Shown here: piece by piece, positions 162 through 47,349 of the stretch
Numbering within the stretch: position 1 is the stretch's first letter
Layout of the letters: every line of letters starts with the position of its first letter
Assembly (NCBI GenBank): GCA_964187785.1
Contig: OZ076409.1
Span: 23,810,001-23,874,000 of the forward strand
Reading direction: 5' to 3'
Length of the DNA: 64,000 nt
Source: Amphiscolops sp. MND2022
Taxonomy: Eukaryota
Position numbers and translations under genes: made by a program
Notes under the pieces: model-generated
Told to the model about the DNA's origin: nothing
Seen by the model: the letters and a program-made list of their open reading frames with translations, nothing else
The model's database searches: none

Positions 162-761
162 ATGTTAAACTCTGATTTCTTAGTTATAGACTTTGAAGGT
201 TTCCGTCACAAATCTCAACAATTTATACCCAAAGAGATTTCTGTTAGAGGCGCCAACTATCAAGACACTATTCTTTTGCAACCGCCGGTGAAATTTTCTC
301 TATTAGCAGAAGAAAATAAAAAGACTTACGCCTGGTTAACAGACAACCTACACGGCATTGTTTGGGAAGCTGGGAGTTACGATCACACATTCATTTTCAA
401 TTTCTTCAACGCGCTCAAACTTAGATTTCCAAACAGTACCGTTTTTACTAAAGGTACCGAGAAGTGCACTTTCTTGAGAAATTTCTTCTTCAGTGTTGTC
501 GACTTGGACACTCTTGGTTGCCCCAAAGCATCTCAGTTTAGCTATTGTTCAACAAAAGTTTGTCCGAATCATCAAAAGTCTTACAAACTGAATCACTGTG
601 CTCGAGAAAAAGTGACATTATTCTACAACTGGTTGTTCAATTACTTTCAAAATTCCTATCATGAATGCAGTCGATGCAACAGCCAAAGCGCACAACCTAC
701 AGCTAACCCTATCACCGAATTTGAGCCTCTCAGTTACAACAACCTTGGAGGTAACACGTGA
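162..761 (+). CDS. Polinton accessory protein, DEDD/DnaQ-like exonuclease fold
   Basis: N-terminal VIDFEGF..KE resembles ExoI (DxE); later VVDLD and a C..H...HCA segment; 199 aa intact ORF. Confidence 0.55.
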   Translation: MLNSDFLVIDFEGFRHKSQQFIPKEISVRGANYQDTILLQPPVKFSLLAEENKKTYAWLTDNLHGIVWEAGSYDHTFIFNFFNALKLRFPNSTVFTKGTEKCTFLRNFFFSVVDLDTLGCPKASQFSYCSTKVCPNHQKSYKLNHCAREKVTLFYNWLFNYFQNSYHECSRCNSQSAQPTANPITEFEPLSYNNLGGNT

Positions 762-1237: not shown

Positions 1238-1510
1238 ATGACTGAGGTAGTTATCGCTGAAGATGATGGTATTGGTAGTATGGAATCAAACGAAGAAAAC
1301 AGCGTAAGGTCATTGTGGAAGTTTTGCAATTCAATCACTTTACCAAGATCAGAGGTTGTCTTTTTTACTCAAGCAACACTAATTTTCATTCTTGTAATTG
1401 CTAGTTTGTTGAAACTTACTCTAGACAGACCGCCATGCGAAGAAATGTCAGTGTGGTTTTCACTATTATTTGGAGCAGTTGGTTACATTCTACCAAATCC
1501 TAAACTATGA
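1238..1510 (+). CDS. Polinton small two-TM membrane protein
   Basis: Two hydrophobic segments ending WFSLLFGAVGYILPNPKL, resembling the small ORF often found upstream of Polinton ATPases; ATG at 1238; stop overlaps ATPase start (ATGA). Confidence 0.7.
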   Translation: MTEVVIAEDDGIGSMESNEENSVRSLWKFCNSITLPRSEVVFFTQATLIFILVIASLLKLTLDRPPCEEMSVWFSLLFGAVGYILPNPKL

Positions 1511-2232
1511 ACAAAATCATTTTCACCAATGATCGTTTATTCATGGCTCTGGTTGGTCCTGGGGGCTCGGGTAAAACTCGTCTCATTTATTCGATGCTTG
1601 CCTCGCCTACAACATTTTATCCACCCATCGAAAAAACTTTTTACTTTTACAAGGAATATCAACCGCTTTTCCAAGAAATGTCTGAAAGATTAAACATTGA
1701 GTTTATTCCATGTTTGGACTTTGAAATGATCAAAAACTTGGAAAACTGTTTGTTAGTTTTCGACGATTCTTGTGAGGAGATTTACCAAGAACAAGCGTTT
1801 GTCAAACTTGCAGTTGCCGGTAGACACAGGAAACTCCATTGCATTTTCGTCAAACACAACTTATTCCATCAAAGCAAGTGGTCGCGTACAATTGATTTAA
1901 ACACAACACATGTTATTTTATTCAAATCACCACGAGACTTACAGCAAATTGATCATTTCGGAAGACAATTAAAACAATTAGATTTTATTCGAGAAGCTTA
2001 TCAGAGGGCCACGACAAGACCATTCGGACATTTACTTATTGATTTCGATCCAAAAACAAGTGACGTCTTACGTTTTTGCTCGAACATTGTCGCTCCTCAC
2101 CCGACTACCTTTTATATTCCATCATCCACTGCAAAGGAAACGCTTCTAACAAATGAGCGAGAAAAAATTGCATATACTGAAGCACTGGCAAGAAAACAAA
2201 AAGAGGAAAGGCATTTCTCGCGTTATACATGA
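1507..2232 (+). CDS. A32/FtsK-like genome packaging ATPase
   Basis: Walker A GPGGSGKT, Walker B LLVFDD, GRH arginine motif, PFGHLLID. Confidence 0.93.
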   Translation: MNKIIFTNDRLFMALVGPGGSGKTRLIYSMLASPTTFYPPIEKTFYFYKEYQPLFQEMSERLNIEFIPCLDFEMIKNLENCLLVFDDSCEEIYQEQAFVKLAVAGRHRKLHCIFVKHNLFHQSKWSRTIDLNTTHVILFKSPRDLQQIDHFGRQLKQLDFIREAYQRATTRPFGHLLIDFDPKTSDVLRFCSNIVAPHPTTFYIPSSTAKETLLTNEREKIAYTEALARKQKEERHFSRYT

Positions 2233-2461: not shown

Positions 2462-3096
2462 GTGCTCAAGAATTTATACTAATACCAAAAGAAAATTACA
2501 TCAAGAATCAACCAAAAGCGTCCGAAATTCTGGACGACCCAACAATTACAGCAAAAAGTCAACAACTTACGTTATTACAACGAGTTCCCGAAAAAAAGGA
2601 GCCCGAGAAGGAAAAAACGTCTGAGGAGAAGAAAGCCCCAGAGACACGAGAAGATATCCAGAAAAGGGTACTTCGCTCAATCACTATGCTCAATCCCAAT
2701 CAAACTGAAAAGTCCAAATCCATTTTGAAAGAATTGCAAAGTAGTTCTGACGTTTCGATAAACGACGAAGGTCTTATAGAGATTAACAATACTCCCACAG
2801 CCATTGATGCGTCAAACTTCCTTTTCACGTTGCAGCAACCCACCAAGAGACTTTATCACCCAGATTACAAACGAATTTTAGACAAAATTAAAATTTCACC
2901 AGATCTAGTACCAAATTCGGAAGCTAAAGAGATTGTAAAACCAAAAGTTGTCAAGACCAAGTTTGTCACAACACCAAAGACAAAAAGCAGCGGAAAGACA
3001 CCAAAGAGACCCCGCAAGAAAGATGACCAGCAATCTGGCCCAAGTTTTGAAAGTCAAGAAGATGGCTCGAAGGATTGGGAAACTTTCAACTACTGA
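2458..3096 (+). CDS. Polinton hypothetical protein (Lys-rich C-terminus ending W..F)
   Basis: ATG at 2458 overlaps the previous stop; occupies the usual position between ATPase and integrase. Confidence 0.65.
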   Translation: MSAQEFILIPKENYIKNQPKASEILDDPTITAKSQQLTLLQRVPEKKEPEKEKTSEEKKAPETREDIQKRVLRSITMLNPNQTEKSKSILKELQSSSDVSINDEGLIEINNTPTAIDASNFLFTLQQPTKRLYHPDYKRILDKIKISPDLVPNSEAKEIVKPKVVKTKFVTTPKTKSSGKTPKRPRKKDDQQSGPSFESQEDGSKDWETFNY

Positions 3097-4006
3097 ACAA
3101 GCAAAGTTAGAAAAAATGTACACGAGTGGACCTGCTGCTTACGGGAGCGCGAGAAATTTGCAAGCGACCAGCAAAATGCCAAAAGCAAAAATTGACACTT
3201 TTTTGCAACAAAAAGATGCCCATACAAAATACAGACAAATTCAACGTAAATTCCCTCGCCTTAAAGTTATTGCTTACGAAATTAACGAAATTTGGTCAAT
3301 AGATGTTGCCTATGTGGACAAGTTGGCAAAATACAACAATGGAGTCAAGTATTTGCTGGTTGCAGTGGACGTGTTATCAAGATTTTTACGTGTTGTACCA
3401 ATGCGATCAAAAAGTGCTCCTGACGCTGCTAAAGCATTCGAAAAGATGATTGAGAAAGTGCAACCGCAGAAAGTTTGGTCAGACAAGGGAACCGAATTCA
3501 AAGGAGCATTCAAAAATCTTTGCGATAAGAGAGGAATAGCAACATACACAACTGCCAGCGAAACAAAGTCAGCTTTTGCAGAGAGAAACATTCGTTCACT
3601 CAAAAATATCATGTACAAACACATGGAAAACAAATGGACATATCATTACATCAGCAAGCTATCTCAATTTGTCAGCACAATCAACTCACGCGTCAATCGT
3701 GTAACAATGTTGGCCCCAAACAAAGTTACAAAGAAGCACGAGCCACATTTACGATCTCTAGCTGCAGAGCAGTCGAGCAAATTTGTCAAAAAACCAAAGT
3801 TTAATCTCCGTGATAAAGTTCGGATAGCCAAACAAGATTTACCCTTCAAAAAGGGATATAAACAAAGTTTCACGGACGAAATATTTACAATAATCAAAAT
3901 TTCAACTTTCAACCCTCCAACATACAACTTGCGAGACGAGAGTGGTGATACAATCAACGGAAAATTTTACGAACCCGAACTTGTGAAGGTCAATGGACGA
4001 ATTTGA
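3062..4006 (+). CDS. Retroviral-like (RVE) integrase of the Polinton
   Basis: Catalytic D (WSIDVAY), D (WSDKGTEF), E (AERNIRSLK); FKKGYKQSFTDEIF and KFYEPEL C-terminal motifs; first ATG at 3062. Confidence 0.95.
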   Translation: MARRIGKLSTTEQAKLEKMYTSGPAAYGSARNLQATSKMPKAKIDTFLQQKDAHTKYRQIQRKFPRLKVIAYEINEIWSIDVAYVDKLAKYNNGVKYLLVAVDVLSRFLRVVPMRSKSAPDAAKAFEKMIEKVQPQKVWSDKGTEFKGAFKNLCDKRGIATYTTASETKSAFAERNIRSLKNIMYKHMENKWTYHYISKLSQFVSTINSRVNRVTMLAPNKVTKKHEPHLRSLAAEQSSKFVKKPKFNLRDKVRIAKQDLPFKKGYKQSFTDEIFTIIKISTFNPPTYNLRDESGDTINGKFYEPELVKVNGRI

Positions 4007-4847
4007 CATTTACCTGGAATCAGCAGGTTCCATGAATATATACAGTGGCAACACAATGGCAGCGTTTCGTAACCTCTTGGCGCACCCAATTCACTTGGAA
4101 GGCGACTGGCGGGTAGCGCTCGCCGAAATCATTTTCCCTACCAGCATCAAAAACATAACTACAACTGACTTTTTCATTTACACACCCAAAACGCCATATG
4201 ACAACACTCCTGTCCCGAGCGCCGCAACAGGTGTAGTTATCAAACGAGAGGATTGGTCAGATAATGCTAAATTTGAAGCTGGAGAGTATCAGACAATCAG
4301 CAGCATTCTGGAGCAACTAGACAAGGCAACTGAAACCAAAAAGCCATTAAACTCTGCAGATTATGTGGAGGATAGCATTGAAATTAGCTTTAAAAGCCGA
4401 TATGGAATAAGTGTCAGAGATCGCAGCCTCTTTGATGTTTTGGGTATCCAGGGGGTGCCAGATACAAATCGAGGAGGCTATTACATAGGAACGAACTACA
4501 AAGTCGCAAATATGCAACAACCAATCAAAAACACTTATCCGCCAGATCTCACAGTGGGAACCAACATGTTTTTCGTCAATACCAACATCATTGAACATCA
4601 ACATGTTGCTGGAGTAAAGTCGCCTCTTTTGCGAATTATTGAAAACACTAAACAAGTTCAAAACGGGAAACTTTTCAACACTTCAACAACAGCCCACAAA
4701 GTTTTCACTGAGCTACAGTTCAAGAAGCTCATTACTAGTACAATTGAAGAAATTCAAATTGAGTTGATGTCCATTACTGGACAGAAAGTTCCTTTCGTTG
4801 GTACCGGTCTAGTAGCTCTCACACTCAAGTTTCGGAAATTTCAATAA
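3993..4847 (+). CDS. Minor capsid protein (penton)
   Basis: N-terminal F.IYLES..SM..Y..NT...FRN.L..PI.LEGDWRVAL.EI.FP and C-terminal IEEIQIEL....GQKVPF...LTLKFR pattern of Polinton pentons. Confidence 0.85.
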   Translation: MDEFDIYLESAGSMNIYSGNTMAAFRNLLAHPIHLEGDWRVALAEIIFPTSIKNITTTDFFIYTPKTPYDNTPVPSAATGVVIKREDWSDNAKFEAGEYQTISSILEQLDKATETKKPLNSADYVEDSIEISFKSRYGISVRDRSLFDVLGIQGVPDTNRGGYYIGTNYKVANMQQPIKNTYPPDLTVGTNMFFVNTNIIEHQHVAGVKSPLLRIIENTKQVQNGKLFNTSTTAHKVFTELQFKKLITSTIEEIQIELMSITGQKVPFVGTGLVALTLKFRKFQ

Positions 4848-5219: not shown

Positions 5220-6537
5220 CAGTAACGCTTTACCAATCGAAACCTCGCACACTTCACTCGATATTTTCGAAAGGCCTCAGCTTCTAGTCAACTTTGACGG
5301 GTCATTTGAGCAGAAAATTGGCCCGCTGTATGCTCCAAATGGACCAACGTTGGAGTTTGAAGTCAAAGGAGACCGGACCAACTTTATCGATTTACAAAAC
5401 ATTTATTTGGAAGTCAAGTGTAAAATTGTAAAAGCAGACAACACCAATTTAAATTATGTGACTGGAGACGCAACTCAACAAGACACGCCAGTTTTCGTCA
5501 ACAATACTCTCCATTCATTATTCTCGGATTGCACTGTAACGGCCCAAGGAGTAAAGGTCTCTTCTGCAAATGGACTTTATGCCCACAAGGCCTTTATTGA
5601 AACTGAATTTTCTCACAACAAGGAAGCAAAAAACACTTGGTTGGAATGCCAGGGTTATAACTACGAATCCAACCCTAGTACGCACACCTTGGGAGCTTTC
5701 ACAAAGAGAGAAGCTGAAACTAGATCTTCAGCCACTGTAACTTTTATTGGGAGGGTTGCCTCTGATTTTTTCTCGTGCGAAAAACATCTCGTGAGTGGAG
5801 TTGAGCTGAGAATATCCTTCCTTCGAACGAGGCCCGAATTTTGCTTGATTTACGACGACGCAGGTAAAGACTACAAAGTTAACATAACTCAAGCCAATTT
5901 GTACGTTCGCAAAATGACTCTTACCGAGAATGCCTATTCAGCAATTGAAACAACTTTGGCGAAAGCCACTGCTCGATATCGGTACACTGAGATCATTCCA
6001 AGGACTTTTCTCATCGGACAAAACTCACAAAGTTGGGATCAAGAAAATGTCTTTAGCGGTCAACCGATTCGAAGATTTATACTTGCCATGTCAACCAATG
6101 CTGGTTTTGTGGGGGCCAAAACAACGAACCCATTCCACTATCAAAAATTTGGTTTGCGGAGCATAACAGTCTATCGTAATGGTCATCCAATTGCTGGAAC
6201 ACCCTTAGAGACTGACACCGATAAAAAGATGTACCTGAATTCAATGGGAGCTCTAGCGTTTCATGAGCATGGTCATGGAATTTCATTCGAAGAATATGCA
6301 AATCATTATCTGTTAGTTTTCGATCTAACCAGTACGCAGCAAGCATCGCATGATTATTTACATCCTGAACTTACAAGTGCATCAATCTCAATCAGTTTGC
6401 GGTTCGATACGGCCTTGGCACAAATTACAGAAGTACTTTTATTGGGAGAAACCGCTTCAACAATATACATTAATAACAGCAGAAAAGTCTCAAAGAACTA
6501 CTACATTGCTCCCGATACCGCATTAACGAGAAAATGA
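5209..6537 (+). CDS. Major capsid protein (double jelly-roll)
   Basis: LDIFERP, LEFEV.G, FIDLQNIYLEVKCKI, NNTLHSLFS, NPFHYQKF, LVFDLT motifs of Polinton MCP; ATG at 5209. Confidence 0.92.
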   Translation: MLINSNALPIETSHTSLDIFERPQLLVNFDGSFEQKIGPLYAPNGPTLEFEVKGDRTNFIDLQNIYLEVKCKIVKADNTNLNYVTGDATQQDTPVFVNNTLHSLFSDCTVTAQGVKVSSANGLYAHKAFIETEFSHNKEAKNTWLECQGYNYESNPSTHTLGAFTKREAETRSSATVTFIGRVASDFFSCEKHLVSGVELRISFLRTRPEFCLIYDDAGKDYKVNITQANLYVRKMTLTENAYSAIETTLAKATARYRYTEIIPRTFLIGQNSQSWDQENVFSGQPIRRFILAMSTNAGFVGAKTTNPFHYQKFGLRSITVYRNGHPIAGTPLETDTDKKMYLNSMGALAFHEHGHGISFEEYANHYLLVFDLTSTQQASHDYLHPELTSASISISLRFDTALAQITEVLLLGETASTIYINNSRKVSKNYYIAPDTALTRK

Positions 6538-6962
6538 TTGACGAACTACAGTTGGGCACTCTCATCAACAAGTGCAAACACTTGAAGTACAAATTTGCTG
6601 GTGTTTATGCAGCAGATAACTTTCCCCTCAATTTAAAGAATGACAACTTTATCATTGTCAATTCAGACAATGCTACTCAAATGGGAACTCATTGGCTTTT
6701 GCTTTGCAACAGAAACAACAAGTATTTATTCGCTGACCCACTTGGCCTTCCACTCAACAATTATTCTCATGTACGTGATCGACTATCTTTTGCAGATTTG
6801 GGAGTGACAGAGATTATACAAGCTCCTCTGCAAAACTTTAACTCAAACTTGTGCGGACTTTATTGCATTTATATAGCTCATTATGTATTTGGCGCTAATT
6901 TTCCTATAATACCTTATACTAGTGAACAAGAACTTTTACGGTTCATAAAACATTTCTTTTGA
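6534..6962 (+). CDS. Adenain-like cysteine maturation protease
   Basis: GTHW (His), FADPLG (Asp), Q....NLCGLYC (Gln, Cys) catalytic set. Confidence 0.92.
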   Translation: MIDELQLGTLINKCKHLKYKFAGVYAADNFPLNLKNDNFIIVNSDNATQMGTHWLLLCNRNNKYLFADPLGLPLNNYSHVRDRLSFADLGVTEIIQAPLQNFNSNLCGLYCIYIAHYVFGANFPIIPYTSEQELLRFIKHFF

Positions 6963-8236: not shown

Positions 8237-11200
8237 ATGAGAACCTGCGACAAGTGCCAGAAAACATTTCCCAACAAAAACAATCTTCGCCAACATCGAC
8301 GAAATGTTCACAAAATCCCTGCTAACCTCTTCCCCATGGAATGCGATGTTTGCCACAAGATGGAGCTATCCGTCGCCCTATCTGATCAACACTTTCGCGC
8401 GAAACACGGAACCCAGTTACAAAAGATGTGCGTGTATTGTGGAGTCGCATTCGATGACGCCCAAAAATTCTTCAAACACTTGTTAGAGAAACATGATCTA
8501 CCACCACCTATCGATTCTATCAAGGAGAAAACGAAACCAATCTCATCCGCTTTCAATGGGGCTCTCAAAGTATTCAAAATTATTGGATCAGGAGAAAACG
8601 ACTTGATGCAGTTCATGAATGATGTCAAACCACAAATTGATCAACTGGTTAGCGAAAATGTAAACCACACAAGTCAGAAAATGCATCTCGTTTTGAGAAC
8701 AGAGCTTTCAAAGCCGACAAAGGGAGAAGAAACTGAACTTTTTCTTCGATCACACATGGTACCTGTTTACGGCAATACCCTGCCGCAAGATGATTTCCTG
8801 GCAGCAGTGGATAAAATGATCAACACTTTGTTTACGTTCACTGCTTCCGGAAGTGGGTGGATACTGGATAAAATAACTGAGCTAGACATTAAATTTGCCA
8901 CCTTCAATCCAATTCGGGGATCCTCCTACCTTCCTACTCCACCAGAACTGGAGGCACCGCATTTACTGCTCAACATTCGCAACCGACAAGATCACAATTG
9001 TTTTTTGTACTGCTTTACAGCTGCGTGGCACCTGAAACATGGACCTCTACTCTATGTGGCTAGCCGGGATTCAATTGGGAGACGAACGAGCCCTGAAACC
9101 TACTCGTCACGAAATCAATTAGCCCATCAAGCAGTGGGTGACTATGAAATGCCCATGGGCTTTGGACAAATGTTACGATTTGAAAAACTGAACAAGTGCA
9201 ACGTTAACGTTTTCCGTTATACTGAAAACGAACTAGTTCCACTGAGAGTTTCCCGTGAAGACAACACTTTCAATGTTGATTTATTGTTAGTGGATGATGG
9301 ACAGGAGTATCACTACGTTCTGATACTGGACCTTTTGAGACTCGTCAACTTGATCAAAGGAACAACATCGTTGTTTCAGAGAGTACTCTGCAGAAACTGT
9401 TTTCACATCTGCACTGATGAAATGGTTTACAAACGTCACCAAGTTAGTTGCCTGCATCACAAGCCCGCAGTTGTGAAAATGCCTCCGCCAGAAAAAAACC
9501 GGTTGAAATTTAAAAACTTGGGTGCGAGATGGTTTGCCCCGGTGGTTATCTACTTTGATCTCGAATCAATCCTTCAGCCACTTGCCGGCTGCCAAAAAGA
9601 AAATGAATCAACAAGCATCAGTGAACTACACAAACCTAGCGGTTTCTGCTTTGTTGGTATTGAACATGGTAACCCTACCCCAATTTTCATGCAGCTTGAA
9701 CGTTCTGAAAACTGCATGGAAAAATTCATTGAAGCACTTGAGAAAATTGCTCACGAAATGAATACAAGAAAGCAAAACCATCGTTACTTTTCTGATGCAC
9801 TACCAGAAAGACCTCAAGAAGCACAATTTTGTTGGATCTGCGAAGGTCAGTTTGGGTTGAATAGAGACATAGAAGACGACAAAGTCATCGACCATTGTCA
9901 CTACTCGGGAAAGTTTCTCGGTTTCGCACACCCAGAATGTAATATCAACAGGAAAACAACAAACTTCATTCCAGTCATAGCTCACAACTCGTCAAACTAT
10001 GACTTGCATCATGTTTGTATGTATATCCACAAGTTCAAACCAGGTTGCAAACTTGATGTAATACCGTCAACAGATGAAAAATACATAACTTTGTCAATCG
10101 GAGTGCCCGTTAGAACATACCAAGATAAAAATGGGGTGACAAAGACGGTATTCGAGTATCTGCGATTTATAGACTCATACCGATTCATGGGTGCTTCGCT
10201 GGAAAAGTTAGTTTCATACTTGCCGGAAGATAAGTTTGAAATACTTGACAAAGTCTTTCCTGATTATTCTAAAGAAGAACGAAACCTCTTACATCAAAAG
10301 GGCTATTATCCATACTCCTACTTTGACAACTTTGAAAAGTTTCAAGAAGAGAAGCTACCACCGAGAGAACAATGGAAAGATTCGCTGCGCAATGGAGAAG
10401 TTATGATTACTGAGGATCAATGGCAACACGCAGAAAAGGTTTACGAGCAGTTCCAATGCGAAAACTTGGGTGATTACCACAATTTGTACCTTTTAACTGA
10501 CACTCTACTCTTGGCATGCGTGGTTGAAGAATTTCGTAGCCTCTGTTATAAGACCTATGGCTTGGACAGTGCACACTATTTTACTTGCTCCCACTTATCT
10601 GGCGATGCTTTCTTGAAAATATGTCGGGCAGACATTGAACTTTTAACTGATCGCTCCCACCTGGAAATGGTTGAAAATATGATTAGAGGAGGTGTATCTT
10701 CAGTGTTTGACAAGAGACTTTTCAAGGCAAACAACAGATACCTAGATGACCACAACACCGGAGAATATGACACTTATGGTGTATTACTCGACGCAAACAA
10801 CTTGTATGGCGGTGTCATGGAAAAACTGCCACTGCCATTGAACAGCTTTGAAACAGTTCAAAACATTAATCTGAGCAAAATATTGGAAACATCTAACGAC
10901 TCTGAAGAAGGATACATTCTAGAAGTGGACCTTCATTACCCCGATAAGCTTCATGATGGACATGAAGATTTTCCACTGGCTCCAACCAAAGAAAGAATCT
11001 ACTACAAAAGTCTGGGAGAAAGTCAACAAGAGTTGTTGGAAAAGATGGGTGAAACTAGACCTTTTAGTCAAGGTAAAAAGCTGATTCAATCACTGTCTGA
11101 CAAAAAGAACTATACTGTCCATTATATAACACTGAAGCTCTACGTTAGCCTTGGCATGGAAGTGAAGAAAGTACATCGAGTGTTAAAGTTCAAACAAACA

Positions 11201-12631
11201 AAATGGTTGAAACCATATATGGAGCTAAATACCGCAAAGAGAAAAGAATCTCGAAACAAGTTCGAAGAGAGTTTCTTCAAACTCATGAACAATTCTTGCT
11301 ACGGTAAAACTCTGGAAAGTAAACGGAACCGCGTGAGTGTACAACTTATCGCCAACAGCGAAGCTCTATTGAGGAGGACAGACACCCCCTTTTTCCATGA
11401 GTTCAAGATTTTCCACGAGAATCTAGCAGCTATATCTTCAAGAAAAAAATCCTTCACGTGGAACAAACCTACAATAGTTGGGGCTGCTGTACTAGACTTG
11501 GCAAAATACATCATGTTTGATTTCCATTACAATGTGATGAAGAAACATCTCAATTGCTTTGTGTTGTACTCGGACACAGACTCATTGCTATACGAAGTGA
11601 AACATACAGATTTCTATGATGAGCTTGCCAGAAACGCAGAGTTGCGTCAATATTTTGACTTGTCAAATTACCCCACAGATCATAAACTCTATAACGCCGA
11701 CAACAAAATGGTAACACTCAAGTTCAAAGATGAGCTAGGAGGAACACCCATCGAAGAATTTGTAGGCCTCAAGCCAAAAATGTATTCCATCTTGGCAGGC
11801 GGGAAGCAAAAGTTATCAGCGAAGGGCGTCACCAAATTCGCTCAACGAAAGCTAACACATGAGCTTTTCAAAACAATTCTGCAGACGGGTGATTCTTTCA
11901 AGACCTTAAACACCCGGATCGGATCAACCCGACACCAATTGCAAACTATCAAGACCAACAAGCTGTCACTGAGCTCCTTTGATGATAAGCGCTATGTATT
12001 AGAAGACGGCATCTCAACCTTACCCCATGGTCACTACATGATCAGGGATGTTCATGTTGAGCAAGACATTTTGGATGAACCAGAATGGGGATATGAAGAT
12101 GAAGAAATGCCAACAAGTCCCACTTGGGATGAACTAAATGGTATCGATCCCCAAAACACAATCTCCCAAGTCTTTCCAGATGAGGCTCCGATGCCGGGGA
12201 ATGCCCGTCTTCCGTCACCATTGCGACTACCTGAAGATGAGTCAATCTCACTCACTCAAGAATTGATGGAAGCATGGTCACCACCTGATCCGGGGATGCA
12301 TCAAAGAGAATACAGTGATTCCGAGCTGGAAGGCGAAACAAACTTGGACGAAACTCGAGAAGAGCAGAGCCCTCCCAGAAACCCATTCATCGACGACGAG
12401 GCGACAGAAGTTTCCGATGCAGATGGCCAGCTCGAAGGAGAAGAGGATGAATCAGACCCAAATGACTGCGTGATTGTTGAGACACTAACGGAAGATGAGG
12501 CAAACGCCATCGAAGACTTGGAATACCTAATCGATTTTGACAATTGGTTCAGCGACGATGAATTTGTGAACCGGATTAAAAGAGCGAAACGGAGAAGGAT
12601 GGAGATTGTGAGCGACAGCGAGAGCGAATAG
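8237..12631 (+). CDS. Protein-primed family B DNA polymerase (pPolB)
   Basis: ExoI YFDLES, ExoII HNSSNYD, ExoIII YLLTD, IRGG, DANNLYG, KLMNNSCYGK, YSDTDS, KPKMY; three N-terminal C2H2 fingers; endonuclease VII-like insert (CWIC..DHCHYSGKFLGFAHPECN); 1464 aa intact. Confidence 0.97.
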   Translation: MRTCDKCQKTFPNKNNLRQHRRNVHKIPANLFPMECDVCHKMELSVALSDQHFRAKHGTQLQKMCVYCGVAFDDAQKFFKHLLEKHDLPPPIDSIKEKTKPISSAFNGALKVFKIIGSGENDLMQFMNDVKPQIDQLVSENVNHTSQKMHLVLRTELSKPTKGEETELFLRSHMVPVYGNTLPQDDFLAAVDKMINTLFTFTASGSGWILDKITELDIKFATFNPIRGSSYLPTPPELEAPHLLLNIRNRQDHNCFLYCFTAAWHLKHGPLLYVASRDSIGRRTSPETYSSRNQLAHQAVGDYEMPMGFGQMLRFEKLNKCNVNVFRYTENELVPLRVSREDNTFNVDLLLVDDGQEYHYVLILDLLRLVNLIKGTTSLFQRVLCRNCFHICTDEMVYKRHQVSCLHHKPAVVKMPPPEKNRLKFKNLGARWFAPVVIYFDLESILQPLAGCQKENESTSISELHKPSGFCFVGIEHGNPTPIFMQLERSENCMEKFIEALEKIAHEMNTRKQNHRYFSDALPERPQEAQFCWICEGQFGLNRDIEDDKVIDHCHYSGKFLGFAHPECNINRKTTNFIPVIAHNSSNYDLHHVCMYIHKFKPGCKLDVIPSTDEKYITLSIGVPVRTYQDKNGVTKTVFEYLRFIDSYRFMGASLEKLVSYLPEDKFEILDKVFPDYSKEERNLLHQKGYYPYSYFDNFEKFQEEKLPPREQWKDSLRNGEVMITEDQWQHAEKVYEQFQCENLGDYHNLYLLTDTLLLACVVEEFRSLCYKTYGLDSAHYFTCSHLSGDAFLKICRADIELLTDRSHLEMVENMIRGGVSSVFDKRLFKANNRYLDDHNTGEYDTYGVLLDANNLYGGVMEKLPLPLNSFETVQNINLSKILETSNDSEEGYILEVDLHYPDKLHDGHEDFPLAPTKERIYYKSLGESQQELLEKMGETRPFSQGKKLIQSLSDKKNYTVHYITLKLYVSLGMEVKKVHRVLKFKQTKWLKPYMELNTAKRKESRNKFEESFFKLMNNSCYGKTLESKRNRVSVQLIANSEALLRRTDTPFFHEFKIFHENLAAISSRKKSFTWNKPTIVGAAVLDLAKYIMFDFHYNVMKKHLNCFVLYSDTDSLLYEVKHTDFYDELARNAELRQYFDLSNYPTDHKLYNADNKMVTLKFKDELGGTPIEEFVGLKPKMYSILAGGKQKLSAKGVTKFAQRKLTHELFKTILQTGDSFKTLNTRIGSTRHQLQTIKTNKLSLSSFDDKRYVLEDGISTLPHGHYMIRDVHVEQDILDEPEWGYEDEEMPTSPTWDELNGIDPQNTISQVFPDEAPMPGNARLPSPLRLPEDESISLTQELMEAWSPPDPGMHQREYSDSELEGETNLDETREEQSPPRNPFIDDEATEVSDADGQLEGEEDESDPNDCVIVETLTEDEANAIEDLEYLIDFDNWFSDDEFVNRIKRAKRRRMEIVSDSESE

Positions 12632-12811: not shown

Positions 12812-12880
12812 GAGATTCTCCAAAAGCCGTAGAATAAAAGCTTTCAGTTGAAAAACAAGTCCATAAATGAATTAAAAAAC

Positions 12881-13952
12881 AAAATACTAGCTTTATTGCC
12901 GCCCCCGCAGGCCTAATCGCGGCCCCGCAGCCGTAAAATGGAAAAAACTTGGGTAAAAAAGCAAAATACTAGGCTTTATTGCCGCCTCCGCTGGCCTAAT
13001 CGAGGCCCCACAGCCGTAGAATGGAAAAAACTTGGGTAAAAAAGCAAAATATTAGGCTGTATTGCCACCCCCACAGGCCTTACTGCGGCCCCGCAGCCGT
13101 AAAATGGAAAAAACCTGGGTAAAAAAGCAAAATAGTAGGCGTTATTGCCGCCCCCGCAGGCCTAATCGCGGCCCCGCAGCCGTAGAATGGAAAAAACTTG
13201 GTTAAAAAAGCAAAATACTAGGCGTTATTGCCGCCCCCGCAGGCCTAATCGCGGCCCCGCAGCCGTAAAATGGAAAAAACTTGGGTAAAAAAGCAAAATA
13301 CTAGGCTTTATTGCCGCCCCCGCAGGCCTAATCGCGGCCCCACAGCCGTAGAATGGAAAATCTTTGGGTAAAAAAGCAAAATATTAGGCTGTATTGCCAC
13401 CCCCACAGGCCTTACTGCGGCCCCGCAGCCGTAAAATGGAAAAAACTTGGGTAAAAAAGCAAAATACTAGGCTTTATTGCCGCCCCCGCAGGCCTAATCG
13501 CGGCCCCACAGCCGTAGAATGGAAAATCTTTGGGTAAAAAAGCAAAATATTAGGCTGTATTGCCACCCCCACAGGCCTTACTGCGGCCCCGCAGCCGTAA
13601 AATGGAAAAAACCTGGGTAAAAAAGCAAAATACTAGGCGTTATTGCCGCCCCCGCAGGCCTAATCGCGGCCCCGCAGCCGTAGAATGGAAAAAACTTGGT
13701 TAAAAAAGCATAATACTAGGCTTTATTGCCGCCCCCGCAGGCCTAATCGCGGCCCCGCAGCCGTAAAATGGAAAAAACTTGGGTAAAAAAGCAAAATACT
13801 AGGCTTTATTGCCGCCCCCGCAGGCCTAATTGCGGCCTCACAGCCGTAGAATGGAAAAAACTTGGGTAAAAAAGCAAAATACTAGGCTTCAATGCCGCCC
13901 CGCAAGCGTAATTGCGGCCTCAAAACCGTAGAATGGAAAAAAACTTGGTTGA
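12881..13952. repeat. Tandem array, 13 units of ~83 bp
   Basis: Unit AAAATACTAGGCTTTATTGCCGCCCCCGCAGGCCTAATCGCGGCCCCGCAGCCGTAAAATGGAAAAAACTTGGGTAAAAAAGC; starts at 12881, 12963, then every 83 bp to 13876; last unit degenerate. Confidence 0.97.
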
Positions 13953-14466
13953 AAGTAGAAATGGAGTAAAGAATTTGAAAGCAACAAATAGATACCAACT
14001 AATAGGACTGATGGGTAATACATAGGTATATTAATCAACGCGAAAGCCTCTTGCCCTAACTGGTGATATGCTCGTTTGTGTTGTGTGTGTGTATGTGTGG
14101 GTATGTGTATGTGTTCTTTCTATCACTATCTCATTCTTTCTCTATGCTTGTCTCCGTGTTTTAGTGCACCATAGATGACCAACTGGTGCTAGATCACACT
14201 TGATAATTTGATTAAAGGATACGTTATAAATCAAAGCTTTCGATCAATACACTTCAGATCCTGAAAAATGTTGGTCATCCTTGTACACGTGCCCGACTCC
14301 CAAAAAAAAACGTGCGGATTCCTCCCACAACCGCTCGAAAACACCGCAAGCGGTGACACATTTTGATCCCCACCTTAACCCTGTTGCTAGTGAACAAACG
14401 TTGAAAATGTAATTCGAAACTCAACCTCATAAGTGTTAAATGAAAAGATCCACACACAGAAAGAGT

Positions 14467-15000
14467 TTATTTCTTCAAAGCATCAAAAAATGCAAGACAC
14501 ATATTGCCCGCGAGATGAGGTTCATTGCAAGAAAAAGCACAGTTTTTAATTCCTGCTAGATTAAGGAGTTTTCTAACCATAGGCAATTTTTCTGTGCCGA
14601 TCAACCCACCAGATTTTGCTGGCGTTAATGTTACAACAGTGGCTCCATGTCGGCCGACACGTTTTCTATCGATAGTTTCCACTCCTGCCGTTCCTCTTTT
14701 CACAGTTAGAACAGCCCGATCAGCGGCTTGTTTGGCCTTCTCAGTTGCCAGAGCCTCGCTTTTGCCACAGTAAACACCAAAGCCGAACTTTCCTTCCCCA
14801 TCGCCATATCCAACATACACACGGTATTTTTTTCGTTTGTCTTCTCTATTTTTTTCAAAAATTGGAATTACTTTGAAGACTTGGAATTGCATTCGGTCAT
14901 CGATAGTTACAATGGTTTGGTGGGGGGTACGTCTCATTGTCAAACTCAAATCCTCGTCATTGACTTCCCAGATGAAGCGTTTGATTAACTCGTATTCCAT
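14467..15000 (-). CDS. Divergent ribosomal protein uS5 (eukaryotic RPS2)-like protein, intronless
   Basis: Aligns by eye with the RPS2 core: [144 protein letters not shown]. Upstream TATAAATA and AATAAA overlapping the stop. Confidence 0.82.
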   Translation of the reverse strand: [177 protein letters not shown]

Positions 15001-16504
15001 TTTTTCGAAAGCCTGGAGTGTAAAATGCGGATTTGACGAGGGGAATTAACGTTCATGACCCTAACTTGACCACATTCATTTTCTTTCGTGGTGAAAATTT
15101 ATCAGTAAGAACGTGAATTCTCATATGTATTTATAAAGGAAAACCATCACTCGGGGATGAAAAAACCACTTGTCGCGCCTAAAGGCTTTTGAAAGTATGT
15201 GGTAAAGAATTACTTGCTATGAATTGAATAAGTAATGAGATCTGCAAAACATAATTGATTGTTTGATTTTTGGGAGTGCAAGTAGTTTTTGAAAGCCCCT
15301 GGTTTGAAATTGAGAACTAACCTTGAAGTAGTTTGCGTTTAACCAGTTGATAATATTCAGTTGATCGGTTGAATGAGGGTTGATATCTTTATGCAACGTT
15401 GCTTGTTTTTCATTGACAAATGCTTTTCATTAAAAAAAATCGTGAATTTTTAAATTGAGATTACCTGGTTTAGTTAATTTCAATCGATTTCCAAAGATCC
15501 ACCTTCTTAGAATAGAGTTTAGTTACTTTTATCTTCCATTATTGAAATGGAAAGGCAAAATTGAGAACTTTTTCCTACCCCCTCCCCTTTTCAAGATGAT
15601 GTTTTTACAAATAATCATATCTCAATTGAGTTACCAATAAAATAGTTCACCAAATTATAAAAGTTTAAAATAATGACATATCTTTTGAAAAAATTGTTTA
15701 ATTCTTTTCCGTCATTTTGACTCTCTTAAATGAATTTTGCGAAACTTTTAATATGATATTGTCAAATATAATCCTTTATATTGATTAGGTTTTACTTGAA
15801 AAGTGTTATTTGAAAAAAATGAAAAGACTTATTTGAAGAAATAATGAATGATAGACGAATACAATCCTTTATGTTGATTATGTTTCCTTTAAAAAGCGCA
15901 GGGGTGGGGGGAAGGAAAAAGAGCCCACAATTGCTTATGAAAAACAAGCAGCAGCTATAAATCCACCTTGTAACACCTAGTCGTTGTTCCGGATTGTTTA
16001 TGATAATTAGAACAGTAGATCGTCTTCAAGTGAATCTATTCGACTCCTTTTGAAAACTTCGATTCAATCTTAATTTGTTGCCGAGAACAAAGGAATCCAG
16101 CTGATGCAAACACAAAGTTTGCAAATTTTAGCAAAACTTTGGCCGATTGTTTACAATTTGGGGAGACAAATTGAAGTTCCAGAGATAAACGAGTGGTTTC
16201 TATTTGTTATTCTTGAGCTTCGTCAACAATGCAAGCTAATAACAGGCGCCGACAGCAAAAGGTTTCCCGCTTGAGGTATTTGAATTAACAACTCAAAAAG
16301 AGCCTGGAAATATTTTTCGTCTGCGAACCAAAATTTCCAAGGTCATAAAATTATAGAACTCTTCTAATACGATCCCTTTATAACGATCCCTTTCAAACGA
16401 TCTAATACGATTCTTTATAAGTGTACAGTTGATAAAATTCATCGTTTCCGCGTACAGAACAAGAAAGTCCATATAAATGTACAAACTGGAATTCGTAAAT
16501 TCAA

Positions 16505-16575
16505 AAGCCCATGGTCTAGGGGTAAGAAGCCTGCTTGGTGGTCGAAGGTCCCCGGTTCGAATCCGGGACTTGGCA
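16505..16575 (+). ncRNA. tRNA-derived (pseudo-tRNA) Pol III unit
   Basis: A-box TGGTCTAGGGG, perfect T-arm CCCGG-TTCGAAT-CCGGG (B-box), TTTT at 16580; acceptor and anticodon stems do not pair. Confidence 0.55.
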
Positions 16576-16646
16576 AAAATTTTGTAAAATTTCAAACCCC
16601 CCCCCCCCGTGTTTAGCACGGTCCGTTAATAAATCCAACTACTTAC

Positions 16647-17065
16647 GTCGGAGCCATATCTAAGTCTCAAAAATAGCAAAAGAAGTTCAAAGTGTCAAGT
16701 ATTCTCTTCTACAGTACCAGAGAAACTCAAAAGTTGGACCAAACTGGCGCGGTGAAAGGGGTCCCTTTCAGATTTTTTAACATCCATTCTGTTACAAAAT
16801 ATCAAAATGAAGGGGACCTTTTGGAGACATTGAAAAATTTTCGAAAAAATGTCTCACAATGCCGAAAAATATGAAAGGACCTCGCACGGTATTGTATGTT
16901 ACGCTGAAAAAAAAGGAACAACCTCTATAGTTCAGTTCCCTGGGCCAAATGGTCCAATTTGACACCTTGAAATTTCGTAGAACTTTGTAGAAATTTATTG
17001 GTCAGTTCGTGTGGATTGAAAAGTCACTCGTATAGTCGTGTTTCACTTCATGAAGCGCCGACTAA
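16647..17065 (-). mobile_element. HINE-like (non-autonomous Helentron) family A, truncated at the Polinton junction
   Basis: GTCGGAGCCATATCTAAG..CAAAAATAGC at left and GCGCCGACTAA hairpin end at right, matching the copy at 63333-63705; terminal stem-loop missing. Confidence 0.7.
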
Positions 17066-39800: not shown

Positions 39801-42800
39801 GCCAAAAACGGAATTTTGGAAAAATCTAATCTTTATTTGCTAGAATTCACCTTTACTAATGCTTGTGCCGTTCAAAGCAAACACGGTACCAACAAAATAG
39901 GAAATAAAAACAGTGCTAAAGAATATTGGCAATTAGCAAAATGAATCAGAAGTTGAAAAAAGGTAGGCTGCTTTAAAATGTCTAGGTTATTTAAGGTGAT
40001 ATTAAGCTTGTGGAAATGAAAGTTTTGTGGAAATGTCAATTCTTTTTTGCAAATTTACAGATTTCGCGTTGTAGAGGACAGACAAACTCACTTAAACTAA
40101 TTAGTTTGCTTGTACTATTTATACTTACTAATTTAAAGTACCTGCCCGCCACATAAGTGCGGATGAACTGAATATTCAGTGATAGAAAAAGAAGATACCA
40201 GAATCAGTTGAATTTTAATAAACAATATCTTTCTCCTTACAAGTCAGCTATAGATACAACATGGCGCAGTCAGAGTAACCTTCACAAGTTACTGAAGATT
40301 AATGGACGACAGCACAAATACTTCTCCAAGAAATGGAGGATTCAACGGGACGGTGACGGAAACGCACCAACGCGAACAACCGCCACCAAACGATACAATG
40401 AACAGAACCACAGAACGGACTTGCACACAGAAACTCACCATTCCAACATTGGACAAGCAAGACTATACCAATGCAAACATGTGGTGGCGGAAATTCGTAC
40501 AGTACATAAAAATGACGAAAGACTTAGATCTATCAGCAATGACAAACAGCAAAGAGATACTGCCACAATACCGTGATCAACTAGAAACAGAGATAAAGGA
40601 CATATTTTTGTGGGCAATCGGACAAAACGCTATCACGGAAATGACCAAAACGGTTAGAGAAAGAGAACCAAGCTCATTACTGTTACACAAACTGTACTCA
40701 TTATTCCGGTTACATTTCACTCCAGAACAGAATGTCCACCACAGTAGAGCCGATTTTTTCGAATTGAAACGAGAAGAAGGAGAGTCAGCGGCAGATGTCT
40801 GGAAATGGATACTGGCAATCGAAAGAAATTGCGAATTTGAAACAATAACCGCGGCAGAACTACTAGCATCAAAGTTCCTCTCGGTAATCGGCAAATCAAC
40901 AGGCGACTACGACCTCAAGAAAAAAATCAGAAAAAGTGACATGTCAGTAGAAGCAATAACCGAAGCACTACATGAACATATGTACGAAAAATTAAACGAC
41001 TCACCAGAAACAGAAGAGGAGAAGCAAATTAGATACCTCAACAAAAGGAAAGCAAAAAGCTATAAAGAACACACGGATAAACCAATCAAATTAAAAAAAA
41101 TGGACTGCAATAGATGCGGAGCTCCGAACTGGTCGAGACAACACGAATGCCCAGCCAGAGGAAAGAAATGTACAAAATGCGACAAGATCGGCCATTACGC
41201 AAAATATTGCAGAACAAATAAAAAGATAAACCGCATACAAGAACACGGAACCAGTAGTGCGGAAGAAGACGACTGGTCACCGAACACAATCCATTGCATT
41301 AACCAAAAGATCCATTCAACGCGTCAATTGAATAAAGACGGTTCAGATTTCTTTACACTCACCGCATTGGTCAACAACCGACCAATCAAATTCATAATAG
41401 ACAGCGGATCACCGGTAACTCTAATACCGAAATCCCTCTTTAATAGAATAACACCGGTGAAACCGCTGAAAACGGAATACCGAGACGTAAACGACAACAG
41501 AATTAAATTTGAAGGAAAAACAACTGCAACAGTAGAAATAAACGGAAAGCGAAATAATCTGGAAATCCTGATCACTACGAAGAAAACCAACCCTTTGTTA
41601 GGCTTGGACTGGATGAAAAAATTGGGAATAACGCTGGAGACCGGTAGAACCGATCCACAAATAAATCGTATCGTTGAAGATCCGGATATTACCACTCTCA
41701 AAAGGAAATTCAAGAAACTCTTTCATGAAAACCATACGGTGAAAGGACTAGAAGTGGAAATACAATTAAAAGAAGACGCAAGGTTAATACAACAAAAAGG
41801 AAGGCCAATACCGATTCACTTACAACAATCGGTCGGAAAAGAAATTACCAAACTAATGAAACAAGGCCACATCGAAAAAGTAAGTAATATAGACGAAAAC
41901 TGTTTCGTCAGCCCGGCAGTAATAACTGTAAAGAAAGACAAATCGGTAAAAATCGCCTCAGACTCGAGAAAATTGAACGAGATTACGATCAAAAGAAAAT
42001 CCCAAATCCCAACATGGAGAAATTAATTTCCAGGATCTCCCGCAAAATCGCGGACGGACCGGCAGACGAAATCTGGACTCCGAAACTCGACCTAGACTAC
42101 GCATACGGTCAGTTATCATTGTCCAGAGAAGCCCGGAACCTGTGCATATTTGCCGTAACCGGTGGAAACCTTACCGGTTACTACCGTTTCCTGAAAGGGT
42201 TTTACGGGTTAGCGGACATACCGACAATATTCCAAGAAAAAATCGACCATACTTTAGAAAACAAACACCCAGCATGGCTAGACGATATAATAGTCGTAAC
42301 CAAAGGTTCAAAAGAACAACACAAAAAGGAACTAATAGATGTTCTAACCCAGCTAGAAAACGCTGGATACAAACTCAGCGAACACAAATCCGAATTTTTC
42401 AAAACGGAGATTGACTGGATTGGCCATAAAATTGACCAAAATGGAATCAGACCATTGCAAGATAAATTAATGGCAATAAAAGAATTGAAAAGACCCAACA
42501 ACGAAAAAGAACTCAAATCTTTTCTCGGAGCCATTCAATATTTATCCAAATATATCCACAATTTATCAGCACAAACAGATATCTTGATACAATTACTGAA
42601 GAAAGATAATGAATGGATATGGACTGAAGAACATACGCAAGCATTTGAGAATCTCAAACAAAAGATCACTGAAATACCGTGTTTGGATCATTATAATTCA
42701 GACTACCCAAACGTGATAACAACCGATGCCTGTACAAAAGGCCTCGGTGCGACTATATGGAAAGAACAACCCGACGGAAAACTGAAACCAATCGGCTTCG

Positions 42801-45800: not shown

Positions 45801-47349
45801 GTCAAACGAAAAGATACAGGAGCGGTCTACCGCCCACCAAACACTGGACCAGTGGAGGAACAACCGCCACAGCGAGAAGAAGAACGCCCCCCATTGGCAG
45901 ACCATCAGCCAATAGAAGAGGGGGAATGTAGAGGACAGACAAACTCACTTAAACTAATTAGTCTGCTTTTACTATTTATACTTACTAATTTAAAGTACCT
46001 GCCCACCACATAAGTGCGGATGAACTGAATACATTCAGTGATAGAAAAAGAAGATACCAGAATCAGTTGAATTTTAGTAAACAATATCTTTCTCCTTACA
46101 AGTCAGCTATAGATACAACACGCGTATTGGGTTTATTCATGAAAAGAGCATTCAAATTGTTTGAAAAACTGGTGTTTCCAAGGCATTCCTGATATCTTTG
46201 CACTTCAGGGCCTTGTGACAGCATATATGCTGTCACAAGGCCCTGAAGTGCAAAGCTATCAGGAATGCCTTGGAAACACCAGTTTTTCAAACAATTTGAA
46301 AAACGCACCAGTTTTTCAAACAATTTGAAACGCACTATAAAATTTACAAGAAAAAGTTTGTTGAATATTCTTATCATTGCTAGATATATCTAGCAATGAT
46401 AAGAATATTCAACAAACTTTTTCTTGTAAATTTTATAGTGCGTGCCATCATCAAGTTTTTTTGACAAAACCATGAGATTTTTCAGAGCTAGTTGTTTTTT
46501 GCGTCATTTAAGTTTGCTGATTTTATCAATCGACCCATGATTCTGGATGTATATTGAGCCTAGCAGGTCTCCAAACATCCAATCTTTCGTTTTTTCGTCA
46601 GTTTTTTTTATTGGGGTTTGCTTCTCGATACGTACTACAAGTTCTGTGAGTTAATAAATGACTGTGGACTATTTTTTGAGTTTCATCTCAGAGTTTGCGC
46701 TATTTTTTCTTTGTGATAAAACGAAAAAATATATTTCATGATGATTTCTAAAGTTCAAGGTCTTGGAATACAGATCAAAAATGGTAGGCGAAAATCAAAA
46801 AGGGTTTCATGTTAGTTTTATTGCGAAGCGCTTATTGTGGATTAGTGTTCAAGACTTGTTTTTGGCAATTTGTTTTCGACCAGTTGTTTTTGACCAGTAG
46901 ATTCATCATAATTACTTTGGTTTTTGGTGAAAAAATACGAAATCGTTGAAAAATGTGCTTTTTTGCCTTTTAGATTTGAGCGTCATTATCTCATCACTAA
47001 GTACTATTATCTCATGTACTAAGTATTGGAGCGGGAGGTTTCACGATTCACTATCATTTGACTAATGTATACTTTTACGCTATTCACAGTGTATAAGAGT
47101 TTATCAGGATTTAGGAAGTCAACTTGGATTGTTTTTGACGTTTTTTTTTCAAAAACTGGCTGTACTCACGTTCACAGCCGAACAGTGTTTGGCAACCAGA
47201 CTGCCTGCCATTATTTCTTCTTTGCAGCTGGAACTCACAATTTCTGTGAAATGGCATTTAGTGTCATTTTTCTCATAATTAGCCATTTCAGAAGCTAGAA
47301 GCACTTTGAAGTGCAGTATAAAAACTGAGAGTAAAATAAAAGGAATCAT
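36838..47349 (-). CDS. ATRAID: All-trans retinoic acid-induced differentiation factor (APR3); exons 47170-47349, 38782-38938, 37319-37565, 36838-36991 (245 aa)
   Basis: Three GT-AG introns give a 738-nt ORF: signal peptide, RCCFN..LIGLDLRSC, FRGL..L..L, CPG, EGF domain CLPDGPSLVQCQC..YRC, TM helix and basic tail; matches recalled human RCCLN..ILGLDLQNC..FRG..CVPDGPGLLQCVC..YKC. Confidence 0.88.
37591..38053. mobile_element. MITE flanked by TA, rich in CTTGCAAG palindromes
   Basis: Imperfect ~45-bp TIRs CCCTAGGTTGAAAAAAAT.. / ..ATTTCTTCCAAACTAGGG; many CTTGCAAG copies in both arms; in ATRAID intron 2. Confidence 0.7.
38257..38523 (+). mobile_element. HINE-like family B, 3' part
   Basis: GATGAAGCGAACGAGTGTTAATTATTCG core and GCAGAAATATTACTGTGCCCCATGGGGGCCTATTTTT end. 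Confidence 0.65.
40070..40261 (+). repeat. 5' LTR (192 bp)
   Basis: Differs from the 3' LTR by 4 substitutions and a 2-bp indel (manual comparison). Confidence 0.95.
40302..45337 (+). pseudogene. Gypsy gag-pol with frameshifts and stops
   Basis: Zinc knuckles (CNRCG..HEC, CTKCDKIGHYAKYC), protease IDSGS, RT LDLDYAY/WLDD, RNase H TDA..ELELLAV..TDH, integrase H..GH..C..C; frame breaks near 42014, 43550 and 44580, stops near 44642 and 44702. Confidence 0.9.
45927..46120 (+). repeat. 3' LTR (194 bp)
   Basis: Preceded by the PPT and followed by TSD CGCGT. Confidence 0.95.
46151..46300. repeat. 150-bp palindrome (1 mismatch, no spacer)
   Basis: Centre GCATATATGC at 46221-46230; arms pair out to 46151/46300. 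Confidence 0.95.
46330..46443. repeat. 114-bp perfect palindrome
   Basis: Centre CTAGATATATCTAG at 46380-46393. Confidence 0.95.

Follow-up and report, generated by a model that had tools for sequence, protein, structure and literature searches.

A Polinton/Maverick element in the genome of Amphiscolops sp. MND2022 carries, just inside its right terminal inverted repeat (TIR), a gene derived from the cytosolic ribosomal protein uS5 (RPS2), and this gene is exchanged together with its flanks, as a block, between elements of the same genome. Its product (P0001) belongs to a large family of deeply diverged alleles under purifying selection, which, judging from their sequences, appears to be a repurposed scaffold and not a spare ribosomal protein. 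The window analyzed here is a stretch of 64,000 nucleotides, to which all positions without a locus prefix refer; its features are collected in Table 1.

The element is a Polinton/Maverick by its TIRs, target-site duplication (TSD), integrase, ATPase, and polymerase motifs. A self-comparison that included 10 kb before the window gave a length of 17.7 kb with the ends AGTAGT/ACTACT; one inverted repeat was found (93% over 104 nt), whose left copy lies 1.08 kb before the window start. Ends of the form (AGT)2//(ACT)2 with a 6-bp TSD are of the Polinton/Maverick type, as in the available text of PMC8097293. A sequence-only reading of the window had placed the right terminus at position 16643, which is borne out by the TIR pair and by the TSD (TACGTC on both sides). 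The uS5-like gene lies, as had been proposed, between the polymerase gene and this terminus, inside the TIR and oriented so as to face the polymerase; the true TIR does not end before position 14467, the case that would have spoken against it.

Table 1. Features of the Polinton and of its terminal cassette in the window.
Feature	Position	Strand	Remarks
A32-like packaging ATPase	1507..2232	+	Pfam Pox_A32 23.8 bits, above cut-off; Walker A/B
Retroviral-type integrase	3023..4006	+	Pfam rve 46.7 bits, above cut-off
Probable minor capsid (penton) protein	3993..4847	+	by size and position only; no library match
Probable major capsid protein, 442 aa	5209..6537	+	by size and position only; no Pfam/PHROG match
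Adenovirus-like cysteine protease	6534..6962	+	Peptidase_C5 E 0.0024, 18 bits, below cut-off of 21.3; His and Cys motifs
Protein-primed family-B polymerase (pPolB)	8237..12631	+	Exo I-III and Pol A-C motifs, in order
83-bp tandem array, ~13 copies	12873..13954		between pPolB and cassette; likely crossover zone
Exchangeable terminal cassette (gene and flanks)	13955..16545		most sister elements without DNA similarity here
AATAAA	14466..14471	-	overlaps P0001 stop codon
uS5/RPS2-derived gene P0001, 177 aa	14467..15000	-	new 36-residue N-terminus and both uS5 domains; start Met common to relatives P0002/P0003
TATAAAT	15129..15135	-	~130 nt upstream of P0001 ATG; not above chance
Right TIR ending ACTACT	16545..16643		left TIR at G000:C1 ~23,808,921, outside the window (L031)
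6-bp target-site duplication TACGTC	16644..16649		identical six bases precede the left end

The polymerase domain of the frame at 8237..12631 found no match in the domain libraries searched, and its motifs are those which we take to be Exo I-III and Pol A-C; the protein also contains three C2H2-type zinc fingers. Two further reading frames were observed in the left part of the element. One (199 aa; window 162-761, +) has a D-x-E motif at its start, appears DEDD-exonuclease-like by eye, has no Pfam match, and is kept in sister elements. The other (89 aa; L031:9148-9417, +), just inside the left TIR and ~850-580 bases before the window start, combines an N-terminal hydrophobic stretch with an EGF domain (Pfam EGF above cut-off), is kept in the sister left arms read, and resembles a viral growth-factor mimic. 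The insertion of the Polinton has split a dispersed repeat, the two parts of which are continuous with each other across the TSD (L031:7700-8920; window 16644-16720), and the exons just ahead of the insertion site presumably belong to a gene resembling that of an RRM poly(A)-binding protein. Elsewhere in the window, long direct repeats ~5.86 kb apart (40070-46120, LTR-like) and a duplication of 1.35-1.9 kb (57026-60223) are unrelated to the uS5 gene.

The 177-aa frame of P0001 is uninterrupted. Both uS5 domains, across which the frame had been noted to align, match above the Pfam cut-offs, i.e., the N-terminal dsRBD-like domain Ribosomal_S5 (PF00333; 30.5 bits, cut-off 27.1) and the C-terminal domain Ribosomal_S5_C (PF03719; 37.8 bits, cut-off 21.5). 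Among the best 60 of 114 matches in the PDB, cytosolic RPS2 of eukaryotes comes closest (E 1e-17). With 30 aligned alleles as input, AlphaFold predicts the two-domain uS5 fold (pLDDT 78; below 50 and unreliable for residues 1-24), with an rmsd of ~2 Å and a TM-score of 0.72 to RPS2 in Foldseek. The divergence from cellular RPS2 is indeed large: the P0001 core is 30% identical to the host's own RPS2, of which the genome holds two ordinary genes, compared with 80% identity between host RPS2 and that of another eukaryote. The description of the gene as intronless holds for the P0001 allele but not for the family, some members of which are spliced. As to the transcription signals first noticed, TATAAAT is present at about 130 bp upstream, but TATA matches within 300 nt upstream are as frequent as expected by chance (9/57 alleles against a 15% background), and the TATA box as a signal common to the alleles was ruled out. 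AATAAA overlaps the stop codon, as it does on the gene at 3993-4847; a poly(A) signal close to the stop is found in 18/57 alleles against a background of 17%.

The extent to which ribosomal features persist was assessed by comparing 50 eukaryotic RPS2 sequences with 37 alleles. At 65 positions near-invariant in RPS2, the residue is kept in at least 60% of the alleles in 22 cases (mostly Gly, Ala, or Pro, in addition to K83 and R98) and is not in 43. The mRNA-channel hairpin comprises 13 residues in 49/50 eukaryotic RPS2 and 8-17 residues in the 37 alleles, and its glycine G94, matched by the present alignment to the fidelity glycine reported for E. coli uS5 (PMC10216425), is kept in 8% of them; P0001 retains the 13-residue length with Asp in place of the conserved glycine. 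It lacks the RG/FxxxFG N-terminal tail, the WxPxTxxGR helix, the YWGNKIG loop, and the TPDLW tail, in line with the earlier remark on the N-tail, the loop, and the C-terminal tail. The RG/FxxxFG tail, which is missing in 57/57 intact alleles, is the part of RPS2 on which the PDCD2/Tsr4 chaperone and PRMT3 methylation were reported to act (PMC10216425), and a role as a decoy for this chaperone or for PRMT3 is, at least in its simple form, unlikely. The core has remained basic (pI 9.7; at least 9.0 in 36/37 alleles). P0001 has Arg or Lys at the three positions matching the internal import signal R95/R97/K99 of yeast uS5 (PMC10377357), and these residues are only partly kept across the alleles (49%, 92%, and 51%). 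Since hairpin and fidelity glycine are not conserved, the family does not look like a spare ribosomal part, and its sequences indicate a repurposed scaffold.

An effect on translation would nevertheless be conceivable, although we consider it unlikely. The protein would rival host uS5 in binding to pre-40S particles, importins, or zinc-finger partners (PRMT3, ZNF277), or would enter ribosomes as a faulty subunit, and host translation would be slowed or start-codon fidelity relaxed to the benefit of the element. Consistent with this are the retained fold and basic charge, the invariant K83, the Arg or Lys found at R98 and K186 in ~90% of alleles, and the ancestral WxP..GR helix that six intact alleles retain, as well as the reported influence of uS5 on the mRNA tunnel and on start-codon choice (PMC10216425). 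On the other side stand the 43 of 65 near-invariant positions that are not kept and the chaperone-binding tail absent from all 57 intact alleles; moreover, the ribosome is a slow-evolving target, which gives no account of alleles that are 29% identical to each other.

The gene is not confined to the element in the window. A search of the genome (1.07 Gb) with P0001, in which 150 of 318 candidates were scored, gave at least 151 matches; four queries together gave at least 252 distinct uS5-like loci, including the two host genes, and fresh alleles turned up with every further query. Among 135 polymerase copies surveyed (those listed of 3311 candidates), a uS5-like match was present within 9 kb downstream in 97, all on the opposite strand, and on the upstream side in one. 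Direct inspection of 25 of the 38 misses revealed the gene in 17, a remnant in one, and no gene in seven. A uS5-like gene is thus located downstream in 114 of 122 examined polymerase copies (97 plus the 25 inspected, with the remaining 13 misses left out), on the opposite strand where checked, so that the anticipated co-occurrence with pPolB extends genome-wide. Its absence from 7/122 elements implies that the gene is dispensable or replaceable. Forty uS5 loci were picked from among the matches with no listed polymerase nearby; a Polinton core gene is found in the fetched flank of 31 and in none of the other nine, which include a tandem cluster on C7. The polymerase identity falls to ~45% among these loci, and the gene is carried on backbones from ~45% to 100% polymerase identity. 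The uS5 cassette was also seen to be amplified in tandem at several places (L078 and L079 at G000:C7 42.17-42.19 Mb; L050; G000:C6 51.32-51.33 Mb), and the C7 cluster holds six cassette copies, with no polymerase in the stretches fetched.

The cassette itself measures 1.6-2.9 kb and extends from a tandem array of 83- or 84-bp units to the right TIR. Thirty sisters were fetched out of 34 other copies with a polymerase piece at least 90% identical. They are ~85-99% identical to the window up to the end of the array (~13954), and from there mostly no similarity is found until the TIR (~16546). A single-copy gene absent from sister elements had been named as a possible outcome; the sisters do carry the gene family, but as deeply diverged alleles and not as the same gene. 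In 27 elements whose polymerase DNA is at least 95% identical and whose uS5 core is intact, 11 alleles were distinguished (clusters at 60% identity), with a median pairwise identity of 29%, and all 74 non-host uS5 cores fall into 19 clusters. The shared length of cassettes has a median of 0% between different alleles (295 pairs) and of 92% within the same allele (30 pairs). The nearest backbone is 0.6% away, and its allele is 27% identical to P0001; no full-length second copy of the P0001 cassette was found among 40 scored candidates.

On a backbone tree of 26 elements, whose branches are mostly below 2%, at least 14 allele changes were counted (minimum 10; 18.5 when shuffled), which means that alleles cluster on the backbone more than expected by chance. 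The left arms, used as a control, are 94-99% identical in 19/20 stretches, i.e., those reaching the arm, and the seven sisters read at the N-terminus of the polymerase agree there at 93-100%. As the left arms are near-invariant, the variation is confined to the terminal slot. In addition, the TSD is perfect in 17/19 sister copies and the TIR variants agree within each copy, from which it follows that the swaps happen before insertion. Gene and flanks are therefore exchanged as a block between elements, and the simplest account of the exchange would be that replicating elements cross over within the array or close to it.

The array was found at the same place in the oriented arms examined and in 13/13 uS5-bearing loci of one inspected set, and the seven loci without a uS5 gene are also without it. 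Its type does not co-vary with the uS5 allele. The periods of 83 and 84 bp represent two unrelated repeat sequences, either of which can stand at this position in a given element; the copy number ranges from 3 to 42, and both types occur in one element at L047 and L069. A structured RNA formed by the array was considered and rejected, since, with a single exception, the 30 folds had z-scores above -1.4, i.e., not beyond those of shuffled sequences.

The way in which the cassette travels bears on whether it could be an immunity or addiction module between Polintons, where each allele would exclude its own type, or be toxic in its absence, and rare types would spread in a genome in which hundreds of copies are already present. 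Lambdoid immunity regions are an analogue of such type-exclusion modules. The exchange of gene and flanks as one non-homologous block and the additional alleles recovered with each further query would be in accordance with this, and a nematode Maverick cargo gave rise to a toxin-antidote element (10.1101/2022.07.12.499685). Against it, no further conserved ORF of at least 55 aa was found in the cassettes (spliced or RNA partners could exist), the adjoining array does not follow the allele, and the invariant left-arm genes offered no matching antidote or operator, all of which renders the module rather improbable.

With regard to the elements that lack the gene, six of the seven uS5-less copies belong to one backbone. 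In L166, JmjC-like ORFs are located ahead of the TIR (L166:1448-4840, -). The JmjC-like protein has language-model neighbours at 0.92-0.96 and HxE..H residues invariant in 13 aligned relatives; its profile match is weak (KDM7 homologue, best E 0.039; Pfam below cut-off), and its single-sequence fold reaches a pLDDT of 34.5. Genome-wide, this family is represented by 126 matches or more, some of them a few kb from uS5-like genes (C12, C1120), and a literature search on Polintons and JmjC yielded only PMC11244446. In L158, L159, L162, and partly L167, another, apparently spliced gene occupies the slot, and the stretch of L168 ended short. In this third cassette type, exemplified by L158:3300-4710 (-), the gene looks multi-exonic, and a ~700-bp tandem unit replaces the 83/84-bp array; an OTU-protease-like motif was recognized in the gene by eye, without Pfam support.

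Such replacements also weigh on the idea that uS5 is an element-intrinsic, nucleic-acid-binding cofactor (in replication, packaging, or processing of the element's own RNA), the alleles of which would be equal and shuffled neutrally at the array. Carriage across such a range of polymerase identity and the pairing of gene and array wherever examined, down to their joint absence from seven loci, argue for it. Binding of uS5 to proteins with C2H2 fingers was also reported (PMC10216425), and fingers of this type occur three times in the polymerase; a complex prediction for the P0001 core with the zinc-finger region of the polymerase gave no support, without a verdict either way. A core cofactor should follow its backbone, yet the alleles differ at ~70% of sites next to a polymerase N-terminus 93-100% identical, and other backbones manage without uS5. 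The cofactor is rather improbable.

The uS5 alleles are under purifying selection. The core is uninterrupted in 70/78 non-host loci; of 346 pairs at 55% identity or more, silent sites are saturated in 263, and the 27 informative pairs, which are not independent, have a median dN/dS of 0.22 (0.08-0.53). The comparison across copies that had been called for thus points to constraint. A neutral passenger, or a decaying RPS2 pseudogene that hitch-hikes on the element, could account for the frameshifted or truncated copies (8 of 79 loci lack an intact core) but not for the dN/dS, for intact frames at saturated dS, for conserved splice sites, or for a confidently predicted fold; it is contradicted by the selection data already and is hardly credible.

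The alleles form one clade (SH-like 0.90; SH-aLRT 93), which the tree puts outside eukaryotic RPS2 on long branches, while grouping them with host RPS2 is not rejected (AU p 0.156). The proposed tree with host RPS2 thus confirms a single clade but does not, with such branches, name the donor by itself. By sequence, cytosolic rather than mitochondrial uS5 is nearest. Host RPS2 has a phase-1 intron just ahead of the last helix, and the L036/L054 and L111 lineages have one of the same phase, equally far from that helix; splice sites are conserved in the spliced alleles. The host intron kept in two allele lineages points to capture from genomic DNA and rules out a retrocopy origin. RPS2 was accordingly captured with its intron, which the P0001 lineage subsequently lost. 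Genes of vertebrate Mavericks, for comparison, were described as intronless (PMC8097293, in the text available). In one allele clade, acidic exons that are spliced have been added at the N-terminus, and others have Ser-rich tails. The acidic exons were observed upstream of the uS5 core at L091, L097, L102, L105, and L109, and contain motifs that we take to be SIM-like (SUMO-interacting). Taken together, the view of P0001 as a captured, repurposed RPS2 on a Polinton stands: it lies inside the TIR, accompanies pPolB genome-wide, is under purifying selection, and is of the cytosolic type.

The function we favor, tentatively and at a little short of an even chance, is that of a putative host-conflict or counter-defense factor under rare-allele advantage, as suggested by the patterns of sequence and carriage. 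As the single clade and the shared intron show, an ancestral Polinton of the host lineage took up a genomic copy of cytosolic RPS2, which, by sequence, retained the two-domain fold and a basic surface and shed the features required on the ribosome. The derivative now occupies a terminal "accessory" slot next to the right TIR, presumably read inward from there. The slot is exchanged as a block, for which crossover at the 83/84-bp array or close by, during extrachromosomal replication, would be the probable route. Its product may be an early, probably nuclear factor that uses the uS5 scaffold off the ribosome to bind RNA or protein and thereby blunts silencing or surveillance of the element by the host. 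If host defense recognizes the RNA or protein of the cassette, rare alleles would be favored, and many old alleles would persist.

Near-universal carriage, purifying selection, and allele swapping were counted in favor of this host-conflict reading, as were the lost ribosomal features, the import-signal residues of P0001, and the SIM-like acidic exons or Ser-rich tails of other alleles. The JmjC-like gene that replaces uS5 in L166 was counted likewise, JmjC being a class linked to viral chromatin conflict (PMC11244446). Against the host-conflict reading, the array as a recombination hotspot could alone drive the exchange of whole cassettes, with no pressure from the host; the JmjC assignment is weak by profile, and members of that family are common at other sites of the genome as well. 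The import-signal residues, moreover, vary across alleles, and seven of the 122 elements do without the gene. A more specific version, which is possible but rather doubtful, regards the uS5 cassette as a variable specificity module, in which a basic hairpin of free length and swapped N-termini would yield allele-specific effectors, diversified by rare-allele advantage in a conflict of hundreds of endogenous viruses with host silencing or with each other.

Outside the host, no uS5 relatives were confirmed in viral contigs or JGI metagenomes, and a query with the capsid protein likewise led to no confirmed relatives in viral contigs. A search of 5.8 billion sequences returned only three relatives. 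Some 30 divergent relatives were present among the best 150 of a representative search (ENA/Logan records, of which 10 were looked up); when two of these were tested against this genome, P0141 matched at 99% and P0074 at 82%. The Polinton uS5 gene therefore appears, from these searches, to be known here from this host lineage. One database record, P0008, resembles a fusion of halves of two uS5 alleles and may be a chimera or an assembly artefact.

The uS5 partner Zfrp8/PDCD2 was tied to the control of some transposon RNAs (PMC4726551). The literature searches brought up no Polinton described as carrying uS5, although supplements of Polinton surveys or subscription papers could list such cargo; the string "ribosom" is absent from the main text of PMC8502044, PMC8097293, PMC11161782, 10.1101/2022.07.12.499685, and 10.64898/2026.10.13.758929, as far as that text was available. 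The cases of ribosomal proteins in eukaryotic viruses found in the accessible literature are eL40 in FloV-SA2 and giant-virus MAGs (PMC11499249), eL40 and S27a in ChrysoHV (PMC13595923), and antisense eS30 in FBR-MuSV (PMC6375957). They too are ribosomal genes on virus-type elements under purifying selection (mean dN/dS reported there, 0.20). Those proteins, however, are small, reside in giant viruses or a retrovirus, and in FloV-SA2 are 84.6% similar to the host's, whereas the present gene is a remodelled universal core 40S protein, found on most elements of an 18-kb integrating family in many exchangeable alleles. Compared with cytosolic uS5, the Polinton alleles share both domains, the fold (~2 Å), the eukaryote-type K83/P86, and, in two lineages, the intron. 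They differ in being 26-38% identical to the host copy, in lacking the tails and the YWGNKIG loop, in a variable hairpin, in many new N-termini, and in their location on a mobile element.

Among other systems, a variable cargo position with host-manipulating genes is also found in nematode Mavericks, which carry protease and kinase families there (10.1101/2022.07.12.499685), and among the accessory genes of adintoviruses (PMC8502044), but here a host-derived housekeeping gene shows deep allelic polymorphism inside one genome. The JmjC gene of endogenized giant viruses in Amoebidium (KDM4-like; PMC11244446) was likewise captured with introns, trimmed to its core domain, and spread over many insertions; it belongs to giant viruses and not to Polintons, and encodes an enzyme of known chemistry, while no activity is known for the uS5 derivative. 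The capture of a host gene by a virus-like element is thus of an ordinary kind; a core ribosomal protein as an exchangeable allele series is new. In layout, the slot recalls phage immunity modules and adenovirus E4, in which a terminal or modular regulatory block is swapped between related genomes, and E4 is read inward from the right end, as the uS5 slot presumably is; there is no homology, and the analogy is one of layout only.

Few eukaryotic viruses carry ribosomal protein genes, and those known have stayed close to their host counterparts. Here, a protein that is among the most conserved of the cell was taken over, lost its ribosomal hallmarks, and diversified into 19 lineages or more within one genome. 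The exchanged cassettes are direct evidence of recombination between animal Polintons prior to insertion, and point to the terminal slot as the probable seat of their host-conflict genes. The alleles constitute a natural series for the study of how Polintons may escape silencing and of what the uS5 fold may do off the ribosome.
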